From NCBI GenBank assembly GCA_963844035.1, contig CAWJMT010000012.1:32001-96000 (forward strand): a stretch of 64,000 bases of DNA, written 5' to 3'. Below the pieces are notes generated by a model, which made no database searches, was not told where the DNA came from, and saw nothing but the letters and a program-made list of their open reading frames with translations. Shown in pieces: positions 6,061-52,073 of the stretch (position 1 is the first letter of the stretch; each line of letters opens with the position of its first letter). The DNA comes from an uncultured Gemmatimonadales bacterium. Its GTDB lineage: Bacteria; Gemmatimonadota; Gemmatimonadetes; Gemmatimonadales; GWC2-71-9. The position numbers and the translations under genes are program-made.

Positions 6061-6198
6061 TAGACGCACAGACGCATAGACGCACAGACGGTGAATAGCG
6101 AAAGGGGGACAGGACAGGTCTGTCCCCCTTTCTTACTGTTTACCACTATGCGTCTATGCGCCTATGCGTCTGCCTATGCGCCTGTGCGTCTATGCCCC
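6061..6198. repeat. Inverted pair of 8-bp tandem arrays (YAGACGCA / TRTGCGYC) around the rpsA terminator
   Basis: TAGACGCA CAGACGCA TAGACGCA CAGACG at 6061-6090. TATGCGTC TATGCGCC TATGCGTC ... TGTGCGTC at 6147-6198. Confidence 0.9.
6100..6141 (+). terminator. Intrinsic terminator after rpsA
   Basis: Perfect 13-bp stem GAAAGGGGGACAG / CTGTCCCCCTTTC followed by TTACTGTTT. Confidence 0.8.
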
Positions 6199-6213
6199 TA
6201 GATTCTGTCCACT

Positions 6214-14412: not shown

Positions 14413-14485
14413 CAGGTGTCAGGTGTGAGGTGCCAGGTGTCAGGTTTCTGAAACCCTGACACCTGAAACCCGACACCTGACACCT
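14413..14485. repeat. Inverted pair of 7-bp tandem arrays (CAGGTGT / GACACCT)
   Basis: CAGGTGT CAGGTGT GAGGTGC CAGGTGT CAGGTTT, then GAAACCCT GACACCT GAAACCC GACACCT GACACCT. Confidence 0.9.
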
Positions 14486-14490
14486 AAAAT

Positions 14491-14587
14491 CCACACGCTG
14501 CCCGATCCGGTCGCGGGTCCCCGCCTTCGCGGCGGGGTTCGACCGGAGATGACGGCAGCGGCGGAACGAACCCAGAAAGGGAGGGGC
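14491..14587 (+). promoter_or_regulatory. Structured rpsB 5' leader (putative S2 autoregulatory element)
   Basis: Nested stems CGCTGCC/GGCAGCG, TCCGGTCG/CGACCGGA and CCCCGCC/GGCGGGG directly upstream of rpsB. Confidence 0.6.
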
Positions 14588-41806: not shown

Positions 41807-43093
41807 ATGCAAGGACAAGCCTTACCCGGCTTTCGCGACTTCTACCCCGACGAGCTTGCCCTCCGCACTCACATCTTTACCACGTGGCGTCGCGTCGCCG
41901 CTCGGTACGGTTTTGAGGAATACGATGGGCCGCCGCTCGAGCCGCTCGACCTCTACACCCAGAAAAGTGGTGAGGAAATCGTCGGCCAGCTGTACGAGTT
42001 CACCGACAAGGGGGACCGGCACGTCGCGCTGCGCCCGGAGATGACCCCCACGCTCGCCCGGATGGTTGGGGCGAGGGCGCAAGCGCTGAAAAAGCCGATC
42101 CGCTGGTTCTCGATCCCGCAGCTGTTCCGCTATGAGCGGCAGCAGCGCGGCCGGCTGCGCGAGCACTTCCAGCTCAACATGGACCTGATCGGCGAGGCGG
42201 GGCCGCTCGCGGACGCCGAGCTGATGGCCGCCGCCGTGGACATCATGCGGGCGTTCGGCCTTGGCCCGGGAGACGTGAAGCTCCGCATCTCCGACCGCCG
42301 CGTGTTGCGGGCCCTGCTGCTCGGCCGCGGGATTCCTGAGGCCCAACTGCCGGCCGCGTTCGCCGTCATCGACAAGAGCGAGCGTGTCCCGAAGGAAGCC
42401 CTGCCGGAGGTCTTCGCGAAGGCCGGAATCGCACCGGCAGAGATGGCGATTGTGGTCGAGGTCGCGAATCTGCGCAGCATCGAACAGGTGACCGCGGCCC
42501 TGGCCAAGGTCAAGGACGGCGAGGCGGCGGGCGAGCCGCTGCGCGAGGCAATCGCGGCGCTCGATGCGATGGGTCTAGGGGAGTTCGTCCAGGTCGACCT
42601 GACCATCGTCCGCGGGCTCGCGTACTACACCGGGATCGTGTTCGAGCTGTTCGACGCCGGCAAATCGCTGCGGGCGATCTGCGGGGGCGGGCGGTTCGAC
42701 GGGTTGCTGAAAGCCCTGGGTGGGGTCGATCTTCCGGCCCTCGGCTTCGGGATGGGCGACGTGGTGTTGGGCGAGCTGCTGCGGGAGCGCAAGGTCGTGG
42801 TGGAGGCGCCCAGCCGGCTCGACGCATTCCTCGTCGCGGTGGGCAGCGAGGACATCCCGGCCGTCCTGAAGCTCGCGCACGAGCTGCGCGACCGCGGGGT
42901 GGGGGTCGAGTACGGGCTGCGCCACGCCGCGCTCCGCAAGCAGATGGAGCTCGCGTCCGCGCGCAGCGCGCCCCGGGCCATCATCATCGGTCCCGACGAG
43001 AGGAAAGCGGGGGAAGTGGTGGTACGAGATCTCAAAGGGGGCGCAGAGGAGCGCGTGCCCATGGCAAACTTGTTGACCGGATATTTCCGCTAA
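41807..43093 (+). CDS. hisS: Histidine--tRNA ligase
   Basis: LRPEMTP, FRYERQQRGRLREHFQ, RGLAYYTG, GGGRFD. Confidence 0.97.
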   Translation: MQGQALPGFRDFYPDELALRTHIFTTWRRVAARYGFEEYDGPPLEPLDLYTQKSGEEIVGQLYEFTDKGDRHVALRPEMTPTLARMVGARAQALKKPIRWFSIPQLFRYERQQRGRLREHFQLNMDLIGEAGPLADAELMAAAVDIMRAFGLGPGDVKLRISDRRVLRALLLGRGIPEAQLPAAFAVIDKSERVPKEALPEVFAKAGIAPAEMAIVVEVANLRSIEQVTAALAKVKDGEAAGEPLREAIAALDAMGLGEFVQVDLTIVRGLAYYTGIVFELFDAGKSLRAICGGGRFDGLLKALGGVDLPALGFGMGDVVLGELLRERKVVVEAPSRLDAFLVAVGSEDIPAVLKLAHELRDRGVGVEYGLRHAALRKQMELASARSAPRAIIIGPDERKAGEVVVRDLKGGAEERVPMANLLTGYFR

Positions 43094-44586
43094 TGGCTCA
43101 GGCCCAGCGCATCACGCCGCGCACGCAGGACTTCAGCGAGTGGTACAACGATGTCATCGTGCAAGCCGAGCTGGCGGACTACTCGCCGGTGCGGGGCTGC
43201 ATGGTGATCCGGCCCCACGGCTACCTGCTGTGGGAGCTGATGCAGCGCGCCCTGGACGACATGTTCAAGGCGACCGGGCACAAGAACGCCTACTTCCCGC
43301 TGTTCATCCCGATGAGCTTCCTCGCGAAGGAGGCGGAGCACGTCGAAGGATTCGCCAAGGAAGTGGCGCTCGTAACCCACACGCGCCTCAAGGCCACGGG
43401 CAAGACGGGCGCCCAGGCGATCGAAGTGGACCCCGAGTCCAAGCTCGAGGAGCCCCTCGTCGTGCGGCCGACGTCGGAGACGATCATCTACGCGATGTTC
43501 TCGAAGTGGATCCAGAGCTACCGCGATCTGCCGCTGCTGCTGAACCAGTGGTGCAACGTGGTGCGCTGGGAGCTGCGGACCCGGTTGTTCCTGCGGACCA
43601 CCGAGTTTCTCTGGCAGGAAGGGCACACCGCGCACGCGACCGAGGCCGAGGCCGAGACCGAGGCGCGCCAGATGCTCGGCATCTACCGCAAGTTCCAGGA
43701 AGAGTGGATGGCGATGCCCGTGCTCACCGGCCGCAAGACCGAAAGCGAGAAGTTCGCCGGCGCGCTGCGCACCTTTGCGGTCGAAGCGCTGATGCAGGAC
43801 AACAAGGCGCTGCAGGCCGGCACGTCGCACAACTTGGGTCAGAATTTCGCCAAGGCGTTCAACGTGCAGTACCAGACGGCGGCCGGCGGCCTGGAGTACG
43901 TGTGGAACACCTCGTGGGGCGTCTCGACGCGCATGATCGGCGGCCTGATCATGACCCACAGCGACGACAACGGGCTCATCTGTCCCCCGCGGCTCGCGCC
44001 GATCCAGGTGGTGATCGTGCCGATCTGGAAGTCGGATGAAGAAAGGTCTCAGGTGTCAGGTGTCGGGTCTCAGGTAAAAGCTGAACTGGAGAAAGCGGGG
44101 ATCCGAGTCGAGTTGGATTTGCGGGACAGCGTGAAGCCCGGGGCGAAGTACTTCGAGTGGGAAGCGAAGGGGGTGCCGCTCCGCCTCGAGGTCGGCCCGC
44201 GCGACGTAGCGGCGAAACAGGTCATGGGCGCGCGCCGCATCGGGGGCAAGAATCCCGTCATGCTCGAGGACATCGCGCCCCGGGTCGCCGCGGCGCTCGC
44301 CGAGATTCAGGCATCGCTCTTCAAGTCGGCCAAGGATCGGCGAGAGGCGAACTCGATCCGCGGCGTGACCAAGGCGCAGTTGATGGACCTCATGAAGGGG
44401 AAGGGCGGGTTCGCCTACGGCGGGTTCTGCGGCTCCGGCAAATGCGAGGCCGAGATCAAGCAGGCCACCGCGGCGACCATCCGGGTGCTGCCCGATCCCG
44501 AGTTCCAGTCGCCCCAGGCCCCGACGACGTGCATGTGGTGCGGCGCCCCGAGCATCGCGGAGGCGGTGTGGGCGCAGGCGTACTAG
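43093..44586 (+). CDS. proS: Proline--tRNA ligase (archaeal/eukaryotic type)
   Basis: RPTSET, FLRTTEFLWQEGHT, QAGTSHNLGQNF, SWGVSTR. Confidence 0.97.
   Translation: MAQAQRITPRTQDFSEWYNDVIVQAELADYSPVRGCMVIRPHGYLLWELMQRALDDMFKATGHKNAYFPLFIPMSFLAKEAEHVEGFAKEVALVTHTRLKATGKTGAQAIEVDPESKLEEPLVVRPTSETIIYAMFSKWIQSYRDLPLLLNQWCNVVRWELRTRLFLRTTEFLWQEGHTAHATEAEAETEARQMLGIYRKFQEEWMAMPVLTGRKTESEKFAGALRTFAVEALMQDNKALQAGTSHNLGQNFAKAFNVQYQTAAGGLEYVWNTSWGVSTRMIGGLIMTHSDDNGLICPPRLAPIQVVIVPIWKSDEERSQVSGVGSQVKAELEKAGIRVELDLRDSVKPGAKYFEWEAKGVPLRLEVGPRDVAAKQVMGARRIGGKNPVMLEDIAPRVAAALAEIQASLFKSAKDRREANSIRGVTKAQLMDLMKGKGGFAYGGFCGSGKCEAEIKQATAATIRVLPDPEFQSPQAPTTCMWCGAPSIAEAVWAQAY
44043..44077 (+). repeat. 5 x 7-bp CAGGTGT-type array inside proS
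   Basis: AAGGTCT CAGGTGT CAGGTGT CGGGTCT CAGGTAA. Confidence 0.8.
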
Positions 44587-45825: not shown

Positions 45826-47377
45826 ACGGGATCCTGATCCTCGACTACGGGTCGCAGTACACCCAGCTGATCGCGCGGCGGGTGCGCGAGGCGCATGTGT
45901 ACTGCGAGATTCACCCGCCGCACCCGCGACCTGGCGTTCATCAAGCAGTTCGCCCCCAAGGGGATCATCTTCTCCGGCGGGCCGAACTCGGTGTTCGATC
46001 CGCGGCGCGCCCACCGCCGACCCGCGGATTCTCGACCTCGGCGTCCCCGTGCTCGGGATTTGCTACGGCATGCAGCTGCTGGCGCACGCTCGCCGGCGGC
46101 AAGGTGCAGCCGTCATCGGAGCGGGAGTACGGCCGGGCAGAGGTCGAAGTGCGGGAGACGAGCGGGTTATTCGCGGGGTTCGAGCCGCAGGCGTCTATCA
46201 CGGTGTGGGCGAGCCACGGCGACCGGATCGAGGAGCCCCCGCCCGGGTTCCGCGTGACGGCCGTGAGCGCCAACGCGCCGGTCGCCGGGTTCGTACATCA
46301 GACCAAACCGATCTTCGGCATCCTGTTCCACCCCGAGGTGGCCCACACGCCGCGCGGCGGCGAGATCCTGCACAATTTCCTGTTCGGGATCTGCGGGTGC
46401 TCACCCGACTGGACCCCCGGGCACTTCGTCGCCCAGCAGGTGGCAGAAGATCGCGAGCGCTGGCGGGACCCAAGGCCCGGGCGATCTGCGGCCTGTCGGG
46501 AGGCGTGGACTCCGCGGTGGCGGCGGCGTTGGTGCAGCGCGCCATCGGCGACCGCCTCACCTGCATCTTCGTGGACCACGGCCTGCTGCGGCTGAACGAG
46601 CGCGAGCAGGTGGAGCGCACCTTCCGCGCGCACCTGGGCCTGGACCTGCGGACCGTGGACGCGAGCGCGCCGCTTCCTCGAGGTGCTGGCCGGCGTTGAG
46701 GACCCGGAGGAGAAGCGCCGCCGCATCGGGCACACATTCATCGACGTGTTCGAGGACGCGGCGCGGCACGTCGCGGGCGACGTCGGATTCCTGGTGCAGG
46801 GCACGCTGTACCCGGACGTGATCGAGTCCAGCTCCCCGACGCGGTGGACCGTCGGTGACCATCAAGACGCACCACAACGTCGGCGGCCTGCGCCCCGATC
46901 TGCCCTGGACGCTCATCGAGCCGCTGCGCGAGCTGTTCAAGGACGAAGTGCGGGAGGTGGGGCGCGAGCTGGGACTGCCGGATGAAATCGTGGGACGACA
47001 TCCATTCCCGGGTCCGGGCCTGGCGATCCGCGTGCTCGGCGCCGTCACCGAGGAGCGCCTCGATCTCCTGCGCCGCGTCGACGCGATCTACATCGCCGAG
47101 ATCCGCGAAGCCGGGCTGTACGACCAGATCTGGCAGGCGTTCGCGGTCCTGCTGCCGATCAAGTCCGTCGGCGTGATGGGAGACCACCGCACGTATGACC
47201 ACGTGGTGGCGCTGCGTGCCGTGACGAGCCGGGACGGGATGACGGCGGACTGGTTTGCGTTTCGCGCCGGAGGTGTTGGGGAAGATCAGCAGGCGGATCA
47301 TCAATGAGGTGAGGGGCGTGAATCGGGTGGTGTATGACGTCAGCAGCAAGCCGCCGGCGACGATTGAATGGGAATGA
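45822..47377 (+). CDS. guaA: GMP synthase, glutamine-hydrolyzing (multiple frameshifts)
   Basis: [51 protein letters not shown]. Confidence 0.95.
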
Positions 47378-47382
47378 CCAGG

Positions 47383-47434
47383 GACGCTAAGACGATAAGA
47401 CGCTAAGACGATAAGAGGCTACGAGGCTAAGAGG
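47383..47434. repeat. 8-bp tandem array (GACGMTAA), left arm flanking the four helix bundle gene
   Basis: GACGCTAA GACGATAA GACGCTAA GACGATAA GAGGCTAC GAGGCTAA. Confidence 0.9.
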
Positions 47435-47792
47435 TGCGTGCCGCAGCAATCTTGCGGAGTAGCCCGTACACCACCTTCCCACATTCGTCGCGTGTTGCTT
47501 TGATCGGTGCCAACTGTACCTCCTCCAAGTATCCGAGCGCCTCCACCATCGCAAGAATCGCCTCGATTTCGTGCAGCGAGCTTCGCGCCATGTCGAGATA
47601 GCGACGAAACTCCTTCGGGCCGCGACGGCTCGCCCCCTCCGTGATGTTGAGCACAACGCTGTACGCGGCCCGCCGCCACTGATCCCCGAGCGCGAACCGC
47701 TCGGTCGCGGGCAGCATGTTGGCGGCTTTGCTGGATAGTACTGCGAGATCGACTGCCCGTTGCCAGGCTCGGAGCTTCCGAAAATCTCCCAC
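47427..47792 (-). CDS. Four helix bundle protein (23S rRNA intervening-sequence protein family)
   Basis: FRKLRAWQRA...ERFALGDQWRRAAYSVVLNITEGASR...EFRRYLDMARSSLHE family signature, 121 aa. Confidence 0.9.
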   Translation of the reverse strand: MGDFRKLRAWQRAVDLAVLSSKAANMLPATERFALGDQWRRAAYSVVLNITEGASRRGPKEFRRYLDMARSSLHEIEAILAMVEALGYLEEVQLAPIKATRDECGKVVYGLLRKIAAARTS

Positions 47793-47866
47793 GGGCGGGA
47801 ATCTTGCACCGCGCCACCTTCAGCCGAACATCATTTCGCCGCACGGAGGCTCATTCCCACGCACTC

Positions 47867-47906
47867 TTAGCGTCTTGCAACTTGCGTCTTACCGTCTTAG
47901 CGTCTT
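47867..47906. repeat. 8-bp tandem array (TTAGCGTC), right arm, inverted relative to 47383-47434
   Basis: TTAGCGTC TTGCAAC TTGCGTC TTACCGTC TTAGCGTC. Confidence 0.85.
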
Positions 47907-47908
47907 TG

Positions 47909-48361
47909 TCAGATGCTCTTCTCCTCCAGCAGCTTCAGGAATTCCTGCGGCGTCTTCAATCGCGCCAACCGCTCCGCAATATCCGCTTCCTTCGCGAACT
48001 GGGCGATCTTGCCGAGCACGGGGAGATACTGGTTCGAGACCTCGAGCGGTGGGGCGACGATGAGAAAGAAGTAGTGAACCGGCTTGCCGTCGATGGAACC
48101 GAAGTCGATCCCCGAGAGCTTGCGGGCGAAGGCGACCCGCAAGTGGTCGACCACCAGCGAGCGGCAGTGGGGGATGGCGATGTTCTGGCCGATGCCGGTG
48201 GACCCAAGCGTCTCGCGGCGCTTCAGCATCTTGACGAGCATCGCGTCGGACTTTTCGTCCAGGTTGAGCAGGCCGACGAGCTCCTTTAAGACGTCGTCCT
48301 TGGCGGTGCTCTGGAGGTCGAGGTTGATAGCGTCTTCGGCGACGAACTCGCGTAGCTGCAC
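47909..48361 (-). CDS. PTS IIA (Fru/Ntr family) protein
   Basis: RETLGSTGIGQNIAIPHCR, IDFGSIDGKPV. Confidence 0.92.
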   Translation of the reverse strand: MQLREFVAEDAINLDLQSTAKDDVLKELVGLLNLDEKSDAMLVKMLKRRETLGSTGIGQNIAIPHCRSLVVDHLRVAFARKLSGIDFGSIDGKPVHYFFLIVAPPLEVSNQYLPVLGKIAQFAKEADIAERLARLKTPQEFLKLLEEKSI

Positions 48362-51652: not shown

Positions 51653-52013
51653 GGGGGCGACAGGCTTCGACGGGTTTGGCGATGGTATCGTTGCGTGCCC
51701 AGGTTCTCAGTCACCTGGTATAAACCACTGGGAAATTATTAACTGCCAATTCAAACCTGGCACTGGCTGCGTAAGCTTTTAGCTTCACGCACCTGCGTGA
51801 GTGGCAGCCCGCCTGAGGCGGCGCTCACGTATCGCAAAGTCGGGCTGGCGTAACCCGGGGTCTCAACGGGTTGCGTAAGAGTCAGGTAGAGGCTGGTCGC
51901 TGCCAGGGCTGACGATGCGCCGAGGTGGCGAGAACACAAGAAAGCGTCGTCTACGCACGTAGTAGCGCTATCGGAGTCTCTCTCGGACCGGGGTTCGATT
52001 CCCCGCGCCTCCA
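51653..52013 (+). ncRNA. ssrA: tmRNA, tag peptide ANSNLALAA at 51745-51774
   Basis: 5' GGGGGCGACAGGCTTCGAC, 3' GGTTCGATTCCCCGCGCCTCCA, acceptor stem GGGGGCG/CGCCTCC with G.U pair, tag ending LAA*. Confidence 0.96.
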
Positions 52014-52023
52014 TGCAGACGAC

Positions 52024-52073
52024 GGGAAGAGGGACGGGGGAAGGGTGCCATCGGCGCTCTTCCCCCGTTTCAT
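52024..52073. repeat. 7-bp GGGA(A/C)GN array with partial inverted arm after tmRNA
   Basis: GGGAAGA GGGACGG GGGAAGG ... CTCTTCCCCCGTTTC. Confidence 0.7.

Follow-up and report, generated by a model that had tools for sequence, protein, structure and literature searches.

What does a stand-alone gene for a small four-helix-bundle protein do between guaA and a PTS IIA gene, and why is it enclosed by inverted arrays of an 8-nt repeat? The locus lies in a 64,000-nt stretch of DNA, here called the window, from an uncultured Gemmatimonadales bacterium whose genome (G000) is 84% complete. A sequence-only reading had proposed that gene and arms form a mobile or RNA-processed unit. The gene (121 aa, GTG start) occupies 47427..47792 on the minus strand, as placed by the ORF list and the PF05635 and TIGR02436 profiles. 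On its guaA side, repeat detection delimits a purine-rich period-8 array of about six GACGMTAA-family units at 47383..47434 (plus strand), which degrade in the direction of the gene and harbor its stop codon (47427-47429). The PTS-side arm, a pyrimidine-rich reverse-complement array at 47866..47906 (plus strand, repeat detection), is interrupted: about 2.8 TTAGCGTC-type units at 47885-47906 and one further unit at 47866-47874 are divided by a 9-base non-periodic piece. By visual inspection, this piece recurs in the arms of the closest relatives of the gene elsewhere (L147, L149, L150). The sequence-only reading had thus described the arrangement correctly, including the stop codon within the left array, while the right arm proved longer than it had given.

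The host flanks are the 3' part of what we take to be guaA (46855..47377, plus strand; stop 47375-47377; named from the earlier reading and a C-terminal motif rather than by HMM) and the PTS IIA gene (PF00359; 47909..48361, minus strand), the stop codon of which (47909-47911) adjoins the arm. Since the arms begin 5 nt past the guaA stop and finish 2 nt short of the PTS IIA stop, the cassette occupies the entire convergent intergenic gap. The guaA part is frameshifted in the assembly, as are many positions in 46400-47380 and in other genes; relatives' contigs show single-base indels there, so that the frameshifts are probably assembly errors. The minus strand of a 546-nt segment folds with -244 kcal/mol (z = -3.81; equaled by 0/100 shuffles) and with the arms paired, in line with the earlier suggestion of a stem. 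Rfam yielded nothing meaningful at the locus, its sole match in the window being tmRNA; the tmRNA gene (51653-52016) is directly followed by an arm of the GGGRAVR family (52024-52045). A likely -10 promoter hexamer (47801..47806, minus strand) ends 8 nt ahead of the GTG, based on its sequence and on the family statistic given below; a promoter and terminator scan of the locus made no calls, its consensus search giving no full sigma-70 site at the gene. Among the sequencing runs listed, 20 DNA runs contained at most 0.20 of the sequence words, and none was an RNA run. One read-derived contig from four sequencing runs joins 47408 to 47884 via 21 other letters; as its shorter side spans 24 nt, this contig may stem from another site of the family and was left out of account. 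Among 15 of the 76 joints listed from the four runs there was no strand-switch joint.

Membership of the protein in its family is clear, with matches of 92.4 bits to PF05635 (cut-off 33.8) and 87.2 bits to TIGR02436 (cut-off 24). The predicted structure (pLDDT 97.3) consists of four long helices and superimposes on Xcc0516 (2GSC; TM 0.91, rmsd 1.2), BT_0352 (2RLD; TM 0.80) and Avd (4DWL; TM 0.73). Like Avd and Xcc0516, which in the portions consulted of PMC6182149 and PMC10053308 and in entries 4DWL and 2GSC combine the four-helix fold with basic character, the cassette protein is basic (pI 9.8; 76/84 proteins have a pI > 8). Passages of PMC4990558 describe Xcc0516 as a pentamer, and those of PMC6182149 describe Avd as a basic pentamer that is required together with reverse transcriptase (RT) for cDNA synthesis and works in an RNA-protein complex; by analogy, we infer that the cassette protein may be a pentamer as well. 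The kinship with Avd that had been drawn from family knowledge thus holds for the fold, but not for the Avd family model NF033474, which was missed (19.8 bits versus a cut-off of 80). Eleven longer homologues among the matches listed, mostly single sequences, had neither a recurring partner domain nor an RT domain in what was a weak search. The protein is under purifying selection, with a median dN/dS of 0.175 over 43 pairs (PTS IIA: 0.13), and Q38, R41, N49, E52, S72 and E75 are invariant.

Enclosure by inverted arms turned out to be a property of the family. A PF05635 gene is present in 25/31 genomes examined, giving 105 family loci in the kin, 102 of them with enough flank for an arm test. 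Inverted arms scored above the 95th percentile of mismatched-locus pairs at 89/102 loci and above the 99th at 81/102, with 13/102 failing the test, whereas in the direct-orientation control 6/102 loci exceeded the cut-off. G000 itself has seven family loci, three of which represent one site on three contigs (L002, L003 and L007 on C30, C9 and C1; 95% and 88% identity), suggesting strain mixing in the assembly; this leaves five sites, each with another arm family. Six of the seven pass; the arms of L002, which failed with a score of 17, are far more decayed than those of L003 and L007. Only 3/990 small genes of G000 reach the 99th-percentile flank score (>= 36), two of the three belonging to this family, and the gene caller behind this set missed the other G000 copies of the family. 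In a wider genome search with one protein query (16 loci, of which 15 come from other phyla and two are near-duplicates), 13/16 loci exceeded their own 95th and 9/16 their own 99th percentile. Strong inverted arms that are non-periodic were seen in the f2 clade (L016, L018, L037, L120, L125, L133).

The 105 loci distribute over 16 shared sites and 52 singletons (about 68 sites). Loci with the same site label group together on the protein tree (18 changes versus 38.9 in shuffles; 96 rows, 111 columns), which indicates that the cassette has often resided long at a site, yet has reached many. Arm type tracks the protein clade across differing sites. A -10-like hexamer 5-9 nt upstream was found in 43/63 family genes whose start sits at the usual position, compared with 136/883 controls and 2/63 in a shifted window, while a Shine-Dalgarno (SD)-like motif occurs in 4/63 family genes versus 230/883 controls. 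A leaderless transcript starting inside the arms from an internal promoter is therefore likely on sequence grounds, and the gene's own transcript would then be devoid of the upstream arm. Across the kin, other family copies do carry inverted arms, as had been anticipated, and none of the three outcomes named beforehand as speaking against the proposal came about, namely copies devoid of flanking arrays, arrays unassociated with the family, or a gene syntenic and vertically inherited across the phylum.

Comparison of the guaA-PTS IIA junction in relatives revealed a polymorphic site, with empty versions as the sequence-only reading had expected. Thirty PTS IIA loci in GTDB kin were inspected by eye; five carry the gene, and the others have arms only or are bare. 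G025, one of the five loaded loci, represents an unrelated lineage, so that the site has been occupied at least twice. In a metagenome junction sample comprising the best 80 of 408 relatives, the gene lies on the PTS strand in 18 and on the opposite strand in 15 cases; 5 junctions have arms only (7 under a looser cut-off), 11 are bare, 15 hold another insert, and in 16 guaA is out of reach and the gene lacking. Within these best 80 of 408, we also encountered three internally deleted genes and three bare junctions that look like collapsed outer arm ends. Another small gene, without arms and pilin-like by our reading, occupies the junction in L186, L201, L203, L207, L224 and L246. Scanning metagenomes with a pattern built on the PTS end returned no matches.

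After removal of 7 partial or frameshifted rows, 29 proteins from the junction (26 from metagenomes, 3 from genomes) form one clade (support 100/99). This clade needs six orientation changes, at least three of which are forced by well-supported branches, and the L217 and L238 cassettes align from arm to arm, promoter included, after flipping one of them. Flips were seen at further sites, two confirmed on both flanks and another within the clade of a fourth site. The longest perfect arm matches span 9-28 nt, making assembly flips less likely while leaving room for chimeric contigs. We saw no sign that near-identical copies had recently multiplied across different sites. Gene and arms thus behave as one unit, as had been conjectured, which is inverted and likely exchanged between lineages.

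If the arms decayed independently, those of a given locus should pair equally well with their own partner and with that of a relative. Own arms in fact pair with a score of 47.5 as opposed to 33.1 with a relative's partner (n = 21, p = 0.0015; rows not independent), the own partner being the best in 10/21. Mismatches within paired arms are balanced on the gene strand family-wide (G·U 125 versus A·C 132), and in the context of tandem genes the transcribed strand has no G·U excess either (15 versus 22). At the present junction the gene strand has 31 G·U versus 18 A·C, a lean that hints at RNA-level selection here.

How far the cassette has moved between hosts was assessed against the PTS IIA gene. 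A weak correlation links the identity of the cassette proteins to that of PTS IIA (Mantel rho 0.31; 0/2000 permutations), which together with the clustering of site labels speaks for much vertical inheritance. Cassette subtypes, on the other hand, are scattered on the PTS IIA tree, none of them better than in shuffles: the 9 rows of subtype B require 8 changes, the 8 rows of C require 7, and the 14 rows of A require 13. Of these subtypes, B and C form clades with support and A gathers the rows left unresolved; four partial genes were allotted to subtypes by visual inspection. The protein of the host nearest to G000 (88% at the DNA level) is 52% identical, that of a 79% host 70%. Between L230 and L238, identity is about 90-98% over the greater part of the cassette and some 60 nt at the end of guaA, and mostly 75-88% in the remaining flanks; the gene has a dS of 0.19, PTS IIA one of 0.86. 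This pattern fits a short-tract transfer at the site, with chimeric assembly as the main caveat. No correlation gradient toward the junction pointed to co-transfer of flanks, where the guaA values were disturbed by indels.

The arms are part of a much larger population of repeats. G000 contains 143 period-7 and 124 period-8 arrays, compared with 5 and 4 after triplet shuffling, and a relaxed detector found 63 inverted pairs versus 0 in the shuffle; 56/63 have a spacer below 160 nt, and in 60/63 the purine-rich arm comes first. Nine hand-defined repeat families capture 311 arrays, among which the reverse arm order within 200 nt occurs in 0 cases; at least nine families with periods of 7 and 8 thus coexist in this genome. 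Four units are the commonest array size (165/311, with three in 87 and five in 18), a peak that broadens with looser matching to three to five units in 273/311 arrays. By rough in-house gene calls, 33/61 arms lie within -19 to +8 nt of a stop codon, and arrays are scarce in divergent gaps (4/53 versus a background of 253/1279), with 12/53 versus 128/1279 in convergent ones. These features match those of the heptamer repeats of Xanthomonas and Nostoc (PMC4692102) and the TAACTGA repeats of Beggiatoaceae (PMC4679880), which in the passages available likewise comprise about four units, are intergenic and stop-adjacent, are rare between divergent genes, often form inverted pairs and in some cases lie in ORFs; no gene is tied to the repeats in these passages. 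We rejected quadruplexes as a general explanation. The cassette's unit has no G-run and so falls outside the quadruplex reading of heptamer repeats.

One empty inverted pair of the window (6062..6200; GACGCAYA family, with a hairpin in the loop) separates an S1-domain gene from a carboxyl transferase gene; another (14413..14496; GGTGTCA family) lies between the genes for ribosomal proteins S9 and S2. The empty and single-arm arrays of the window had been suggested as possible footprints of this cassette, but they belong to repeat families other than the cassette's own; on other contigs, the GACGMTAA family accounts for 6 empty pairs and 12 solo arrays. Terminator-like hairpins or AT-rich palindromes lie inside some empty pairs (window 6062-6200; C3:405366, C27:46333, C35:85187), which means that arms can bracket other intergenic signals. 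Four pairs are chimeric, with the purine arm of one family followed by the pyrimidine arm of another (C23:40579, C27:46333, C35:93627, C35:249588). Where relatives have a loaded site, its counterpart in G000 is often taken up by an empty pair or a solo arm from another family. Searches for mobile enzymes, which covered RT (PF00078) and Y1 (HUH) transposases, gave 0 RT matches in the 84% complete G000 and five Y1 matches at four places, all on contigs other than that of the cassette, in agreement with the earlier remark that neither is found nearby. The Y1 genes (C23:11530, C5:185867, C23:33741, C5:200388), presumably RAYT-like, each have their own non-periodic palindromes, as judged by eye.

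Across genomes, repeat families largely follow protein clades, with exceptions. Arrays of the 8-mer family (at least two matches) occur in 15/16 genomes carrying the mostly 8-mer-armed clade and in 2/15 without it, and GAATGCG arrays in 5/6 carriers of the matching clade versus 3/25 others. These counts have to be read bearing in mind that kin are not independent, that the patterns were designed from G000, that the arms of the genes themselves contribute part of the matches, and that a reversed 8-mer control also matches in G008, G009, G013 and G017. In genomes devoid of a family gene, we found 0 arrays in 220 kb sampled from G003 (same genus, complete), 0 in 122 kb from G011 and three GC-only runs in 71 kb from G022, as compared with 2.5-13.6 arrays per 100 kb sampled in three gene-bearing genomes. 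The exceptions are G014 (97% complete), in which 12 array matches and, in a 180-kb sample, 3 family-type arrays coexist with no detectable family gene; G000, with GAATGCG and GGGRAVR arrays but no matching gene (at 84% completeness); and G007, with 41 8-mer matches but no member of the 8-mer-armed clade. L309, in the family-negative scored G010, is a truncated gene remnant with decayed flanking repeats.

Arrays are also found within coding sequence. Sixteen lie deep inside well-scoring genes, the purine strand being the coding strand in 14/16. In the window, a solo four-unit array of the GGTGTCA family (44044..44075, plus strand) resides in frame within ORF 43093-44586, which we take to be proS. 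Six such genes, tentatively named, were compared with same-genus orthologues. The array at 44044-44075 causes no length change relative to 3/3 orthologues, which implies that it was written over coding sequence rather than inserted; among the other arrays of the six genes, one differs by at most one codon and the rest lie in loops of variable length. The loop arrays of G000 (L272 at C3:391536, L273 at C2:45302, L277 at C4:37498, L275 at C1:3400 and L274 at C35:268533) have counterparts at matching positions in sister genomes, frequently from another repeat family and in one case, G006, on the opposite strand, while G003 has no array in 5/5 coding loops where its kin have one. The broader notion that arrays are cassette footprints can therefore be kept for the empties and stubs at the junction, which look like decay products, but not for arrays in coding loops, which excision does not explain.

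The sequence next to the arms is affected as well. In the last 10 codons before an arm, C makes up 0.16 of four-fold sites versus 0.35 (64 genes, p = 1e-6); over about 20 codons of genes ending at an arm, C goes down while G and A go up. Genes starting after the other arm show a loss of G at four-fold sites (24 genes, p = 8e-4). Among guaA orthologues, four-fold C amounts to 0.22 at loaded versus 0.43 at bare junctions, with no clear split for PTS IIA orthologues. Cytosine deamination was rejected as the cause of this shift since the lost C gives way to G and A rather than to T. The synonymous purine shifts are compatible both with selection acting on RNA and with a process at the DNA level.

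What, then, is the cassette? The layout, the specificity of inverted arms for the whole family, the occurrence of both orientations at a single site in a single clade, and concerted arms are established, as are purifying selection, discordance between cassette and flanking genes, and a partial match between clades and repeats. The best reading is that the cassette represents a widespread inverted-repeat element in the form that carries a gene. That it is a transposase-free, invertible and exchangeable cassette, the protein of which putatively binds and spreads its repeats, we hold about equally likely to be right or wrong. According to this model, inversion and arm homogenization would come about by replication template switching or recombination between the arms, loop deletion would give rise to partial genes, empty pairs and stubs, and movement from host to host could rely on recombination of short tracts at an arm and at the conserved end of guaA. 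The gene would be expressed as a leaderless mRNA. The weakest step is what follows: the predicted pentameric ring putatively binds single-stranded repeats of the cognate family and may promote the writing of about four units by host enzymes beside stops and in coding loops. The symmetric, strand-neutral behavior points to DNA-level copying at the arms, and the exclusive tie to the family, the match of clades with repeats and the four-unit peak point to repeat recognition by the protein. Template switching at short inverted repeats in yeast genes, as far as covered by the passages of PMC8604942, likewise yields homogenized arms and inverted spacers with no dedicated enzyme; there, however, the spacers measure 2-5 bases compared with a cassette of about 430, and spread to new sites is left unexplained. 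The repeats without matching genes in G014, G000 and G007 also weigh against our model.

A host regulator is the alternative that has to be weighed most carefully. The RNA-binding regulatory ring TRAP offers a comparison: the protein might be a similar ring that recognizes about four purine-strand repeats in mRNA past stop codons, with the complementary arm as competitor, the gene's own sites serving autoregulation, and flips and swaps being neutral by-products. The position of the arms beside stops, the purine strand being mostly the coding one in intragenic arrays, purifying selection, and the loss of four-fold C before arms mirrored by G loss after them, as if mispairing with the arm were selected against, would all be in line with this idea, and repeat-binding regulators were indeed proposed by MacGregor in the passages available (PMC4679880). 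Against it, a G·U excess is lacking on the transcribed strand and on the gene strand family-wide; the same site holds different repeat families in sister genomes, close relatives have neither gene nor arrays, and some 68 sites among 105 loci would be unusual for a stable regulon. Taken together, we regard this explanation as unlikely, while according it serious weight.

It is decidedly less probable that the unit is processed like an intervening sequence (IVS) in rRNA, whereby a read-through mRNA would form the stem, RNase III would cut out the loop, and the element would spread since cleavage renders it harmless. The available portions of PMC4990558 place the same protein family in rRNA IVSs with complementary borders cut by RNase III, the arms do form a stable stem, and the G·U lean at this junction would suit an RNA stem. 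Yet the locus lies outside rRNA, between convergent stops where cleavage rescues nothing obvious, and the likely internal promoter would deprive the transcript of the upstream arm. With the overall balance of G·U and A·C, and with flips, solo arms in coding loops and the clade-repeat match left unexplained, RNA excision of the kind that the sequence-only reading had envisaged finds no backing. In the sections consulted of PMC4990558 and 10.1101/2024.02.27.582315, rRNA IVSs resemble the cassette in their S23p/PF05635 protein, their complementary stem-forming borders, and their patchy, horizontally transferred occurrence in ORF-bearing and ORF-less versions at one site. The cassette differs by its location between protein genes, its tandem-array arms, its two orientations and its likely internal promoter, and its ORF is under purifying selection while the Coxiella IVS ORF is reported there as decaying.

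Could the gene simply be a passenger, enclosed by chance in some of the 7-8-mer palindromes that host replication errors create past stops? G014 with its arrays but no gene would be accounted for, and one study reportedly found that template switching can build and keep hairpins. Against this, hardly any other small gene is bracketed, arm type follows the protein clade across sites, and the sampled DNA of G003 and G011 is free of arrays, making this account quite improbable. The probability of retro-mobility, with the protein as an Avd-like partner of an RT acting in trans or as the remnant of a diversity-generating retroelement (DGR), is very small. The Avd fold is common to both, Avd acts together with RT in cDNA synthesis (according to the passages of PMC6182149), and overwriting in place recalls retrohoming; but PF00078 occurs in 4/31 genomes versus 25/31 for the gene, G000 lacks it altogether, nothing of the kind adjoins the cassette, the Avd model is missed by 60 bits, and the weak search of 11 longer homologues listed gave no RT domain.

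Least probable of all, and hardly credible, is a MITE or REP/RAYT-type element with its transposase encoded elsewhere: such systems combine one gene-bearing copy with many gene-less extragenic palindromes, and loaded and empty forms as well as Y1 genes do coexist here, but the Y1 genes appear by eye to be flanked by palindromes of their own, the cassette gene has no nuclease or transposase domain (no PF01797), the periodic tandem-array arms keep a fixed purine-first polarity and vary in their outer ends by family, with no common terminal motif seen, and no target duplication was seen by eye. On the features tested, the cassette falls outside IVSs, DGRs and REP/RAYT elements.

Each component had been known on its own, be it the protein family, rRNA IVSs with an ORF or paired heptamers, and the literature searched, in which subscription journals were scarcely covered, held no report joining a PF05635 gene to inverted repeat arms. 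What this locus adds are recurrent flips, concerted arms, site-specific exchange and the purine shift in the flanks. Two puzzles meet here, that of a widespread family with solved structures and no function and that of the excess of 7-8-base tandem repeats in bacteria. With the protein's own, clade-specific arm family as candidate ligand and with inversion, loop loss and repeat writing as measurable outcomes, both become open to test. A bolder reading, which we put forward tentatively and consider somewhat more apt to fail than to hold, is that PF05635 proteins act as the sequence-specific engine behind a so far undescribed class of mobile elements that manages without transposase, recombinase or RT, each lineage recognizing its own 7-8-base repeat, measuring about four units and directing host enzymes to overwrite chosen targets past stop codons, within coding loops and around its own gene. 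If so, this would explain bacterial heptamer repeats, and ORF-bearing rRNA IVSs would be one landing site among others. Should the protein indeed direct repeat writing, this would be a new route of genome change, one that also alters loops of housekeeping proteins.
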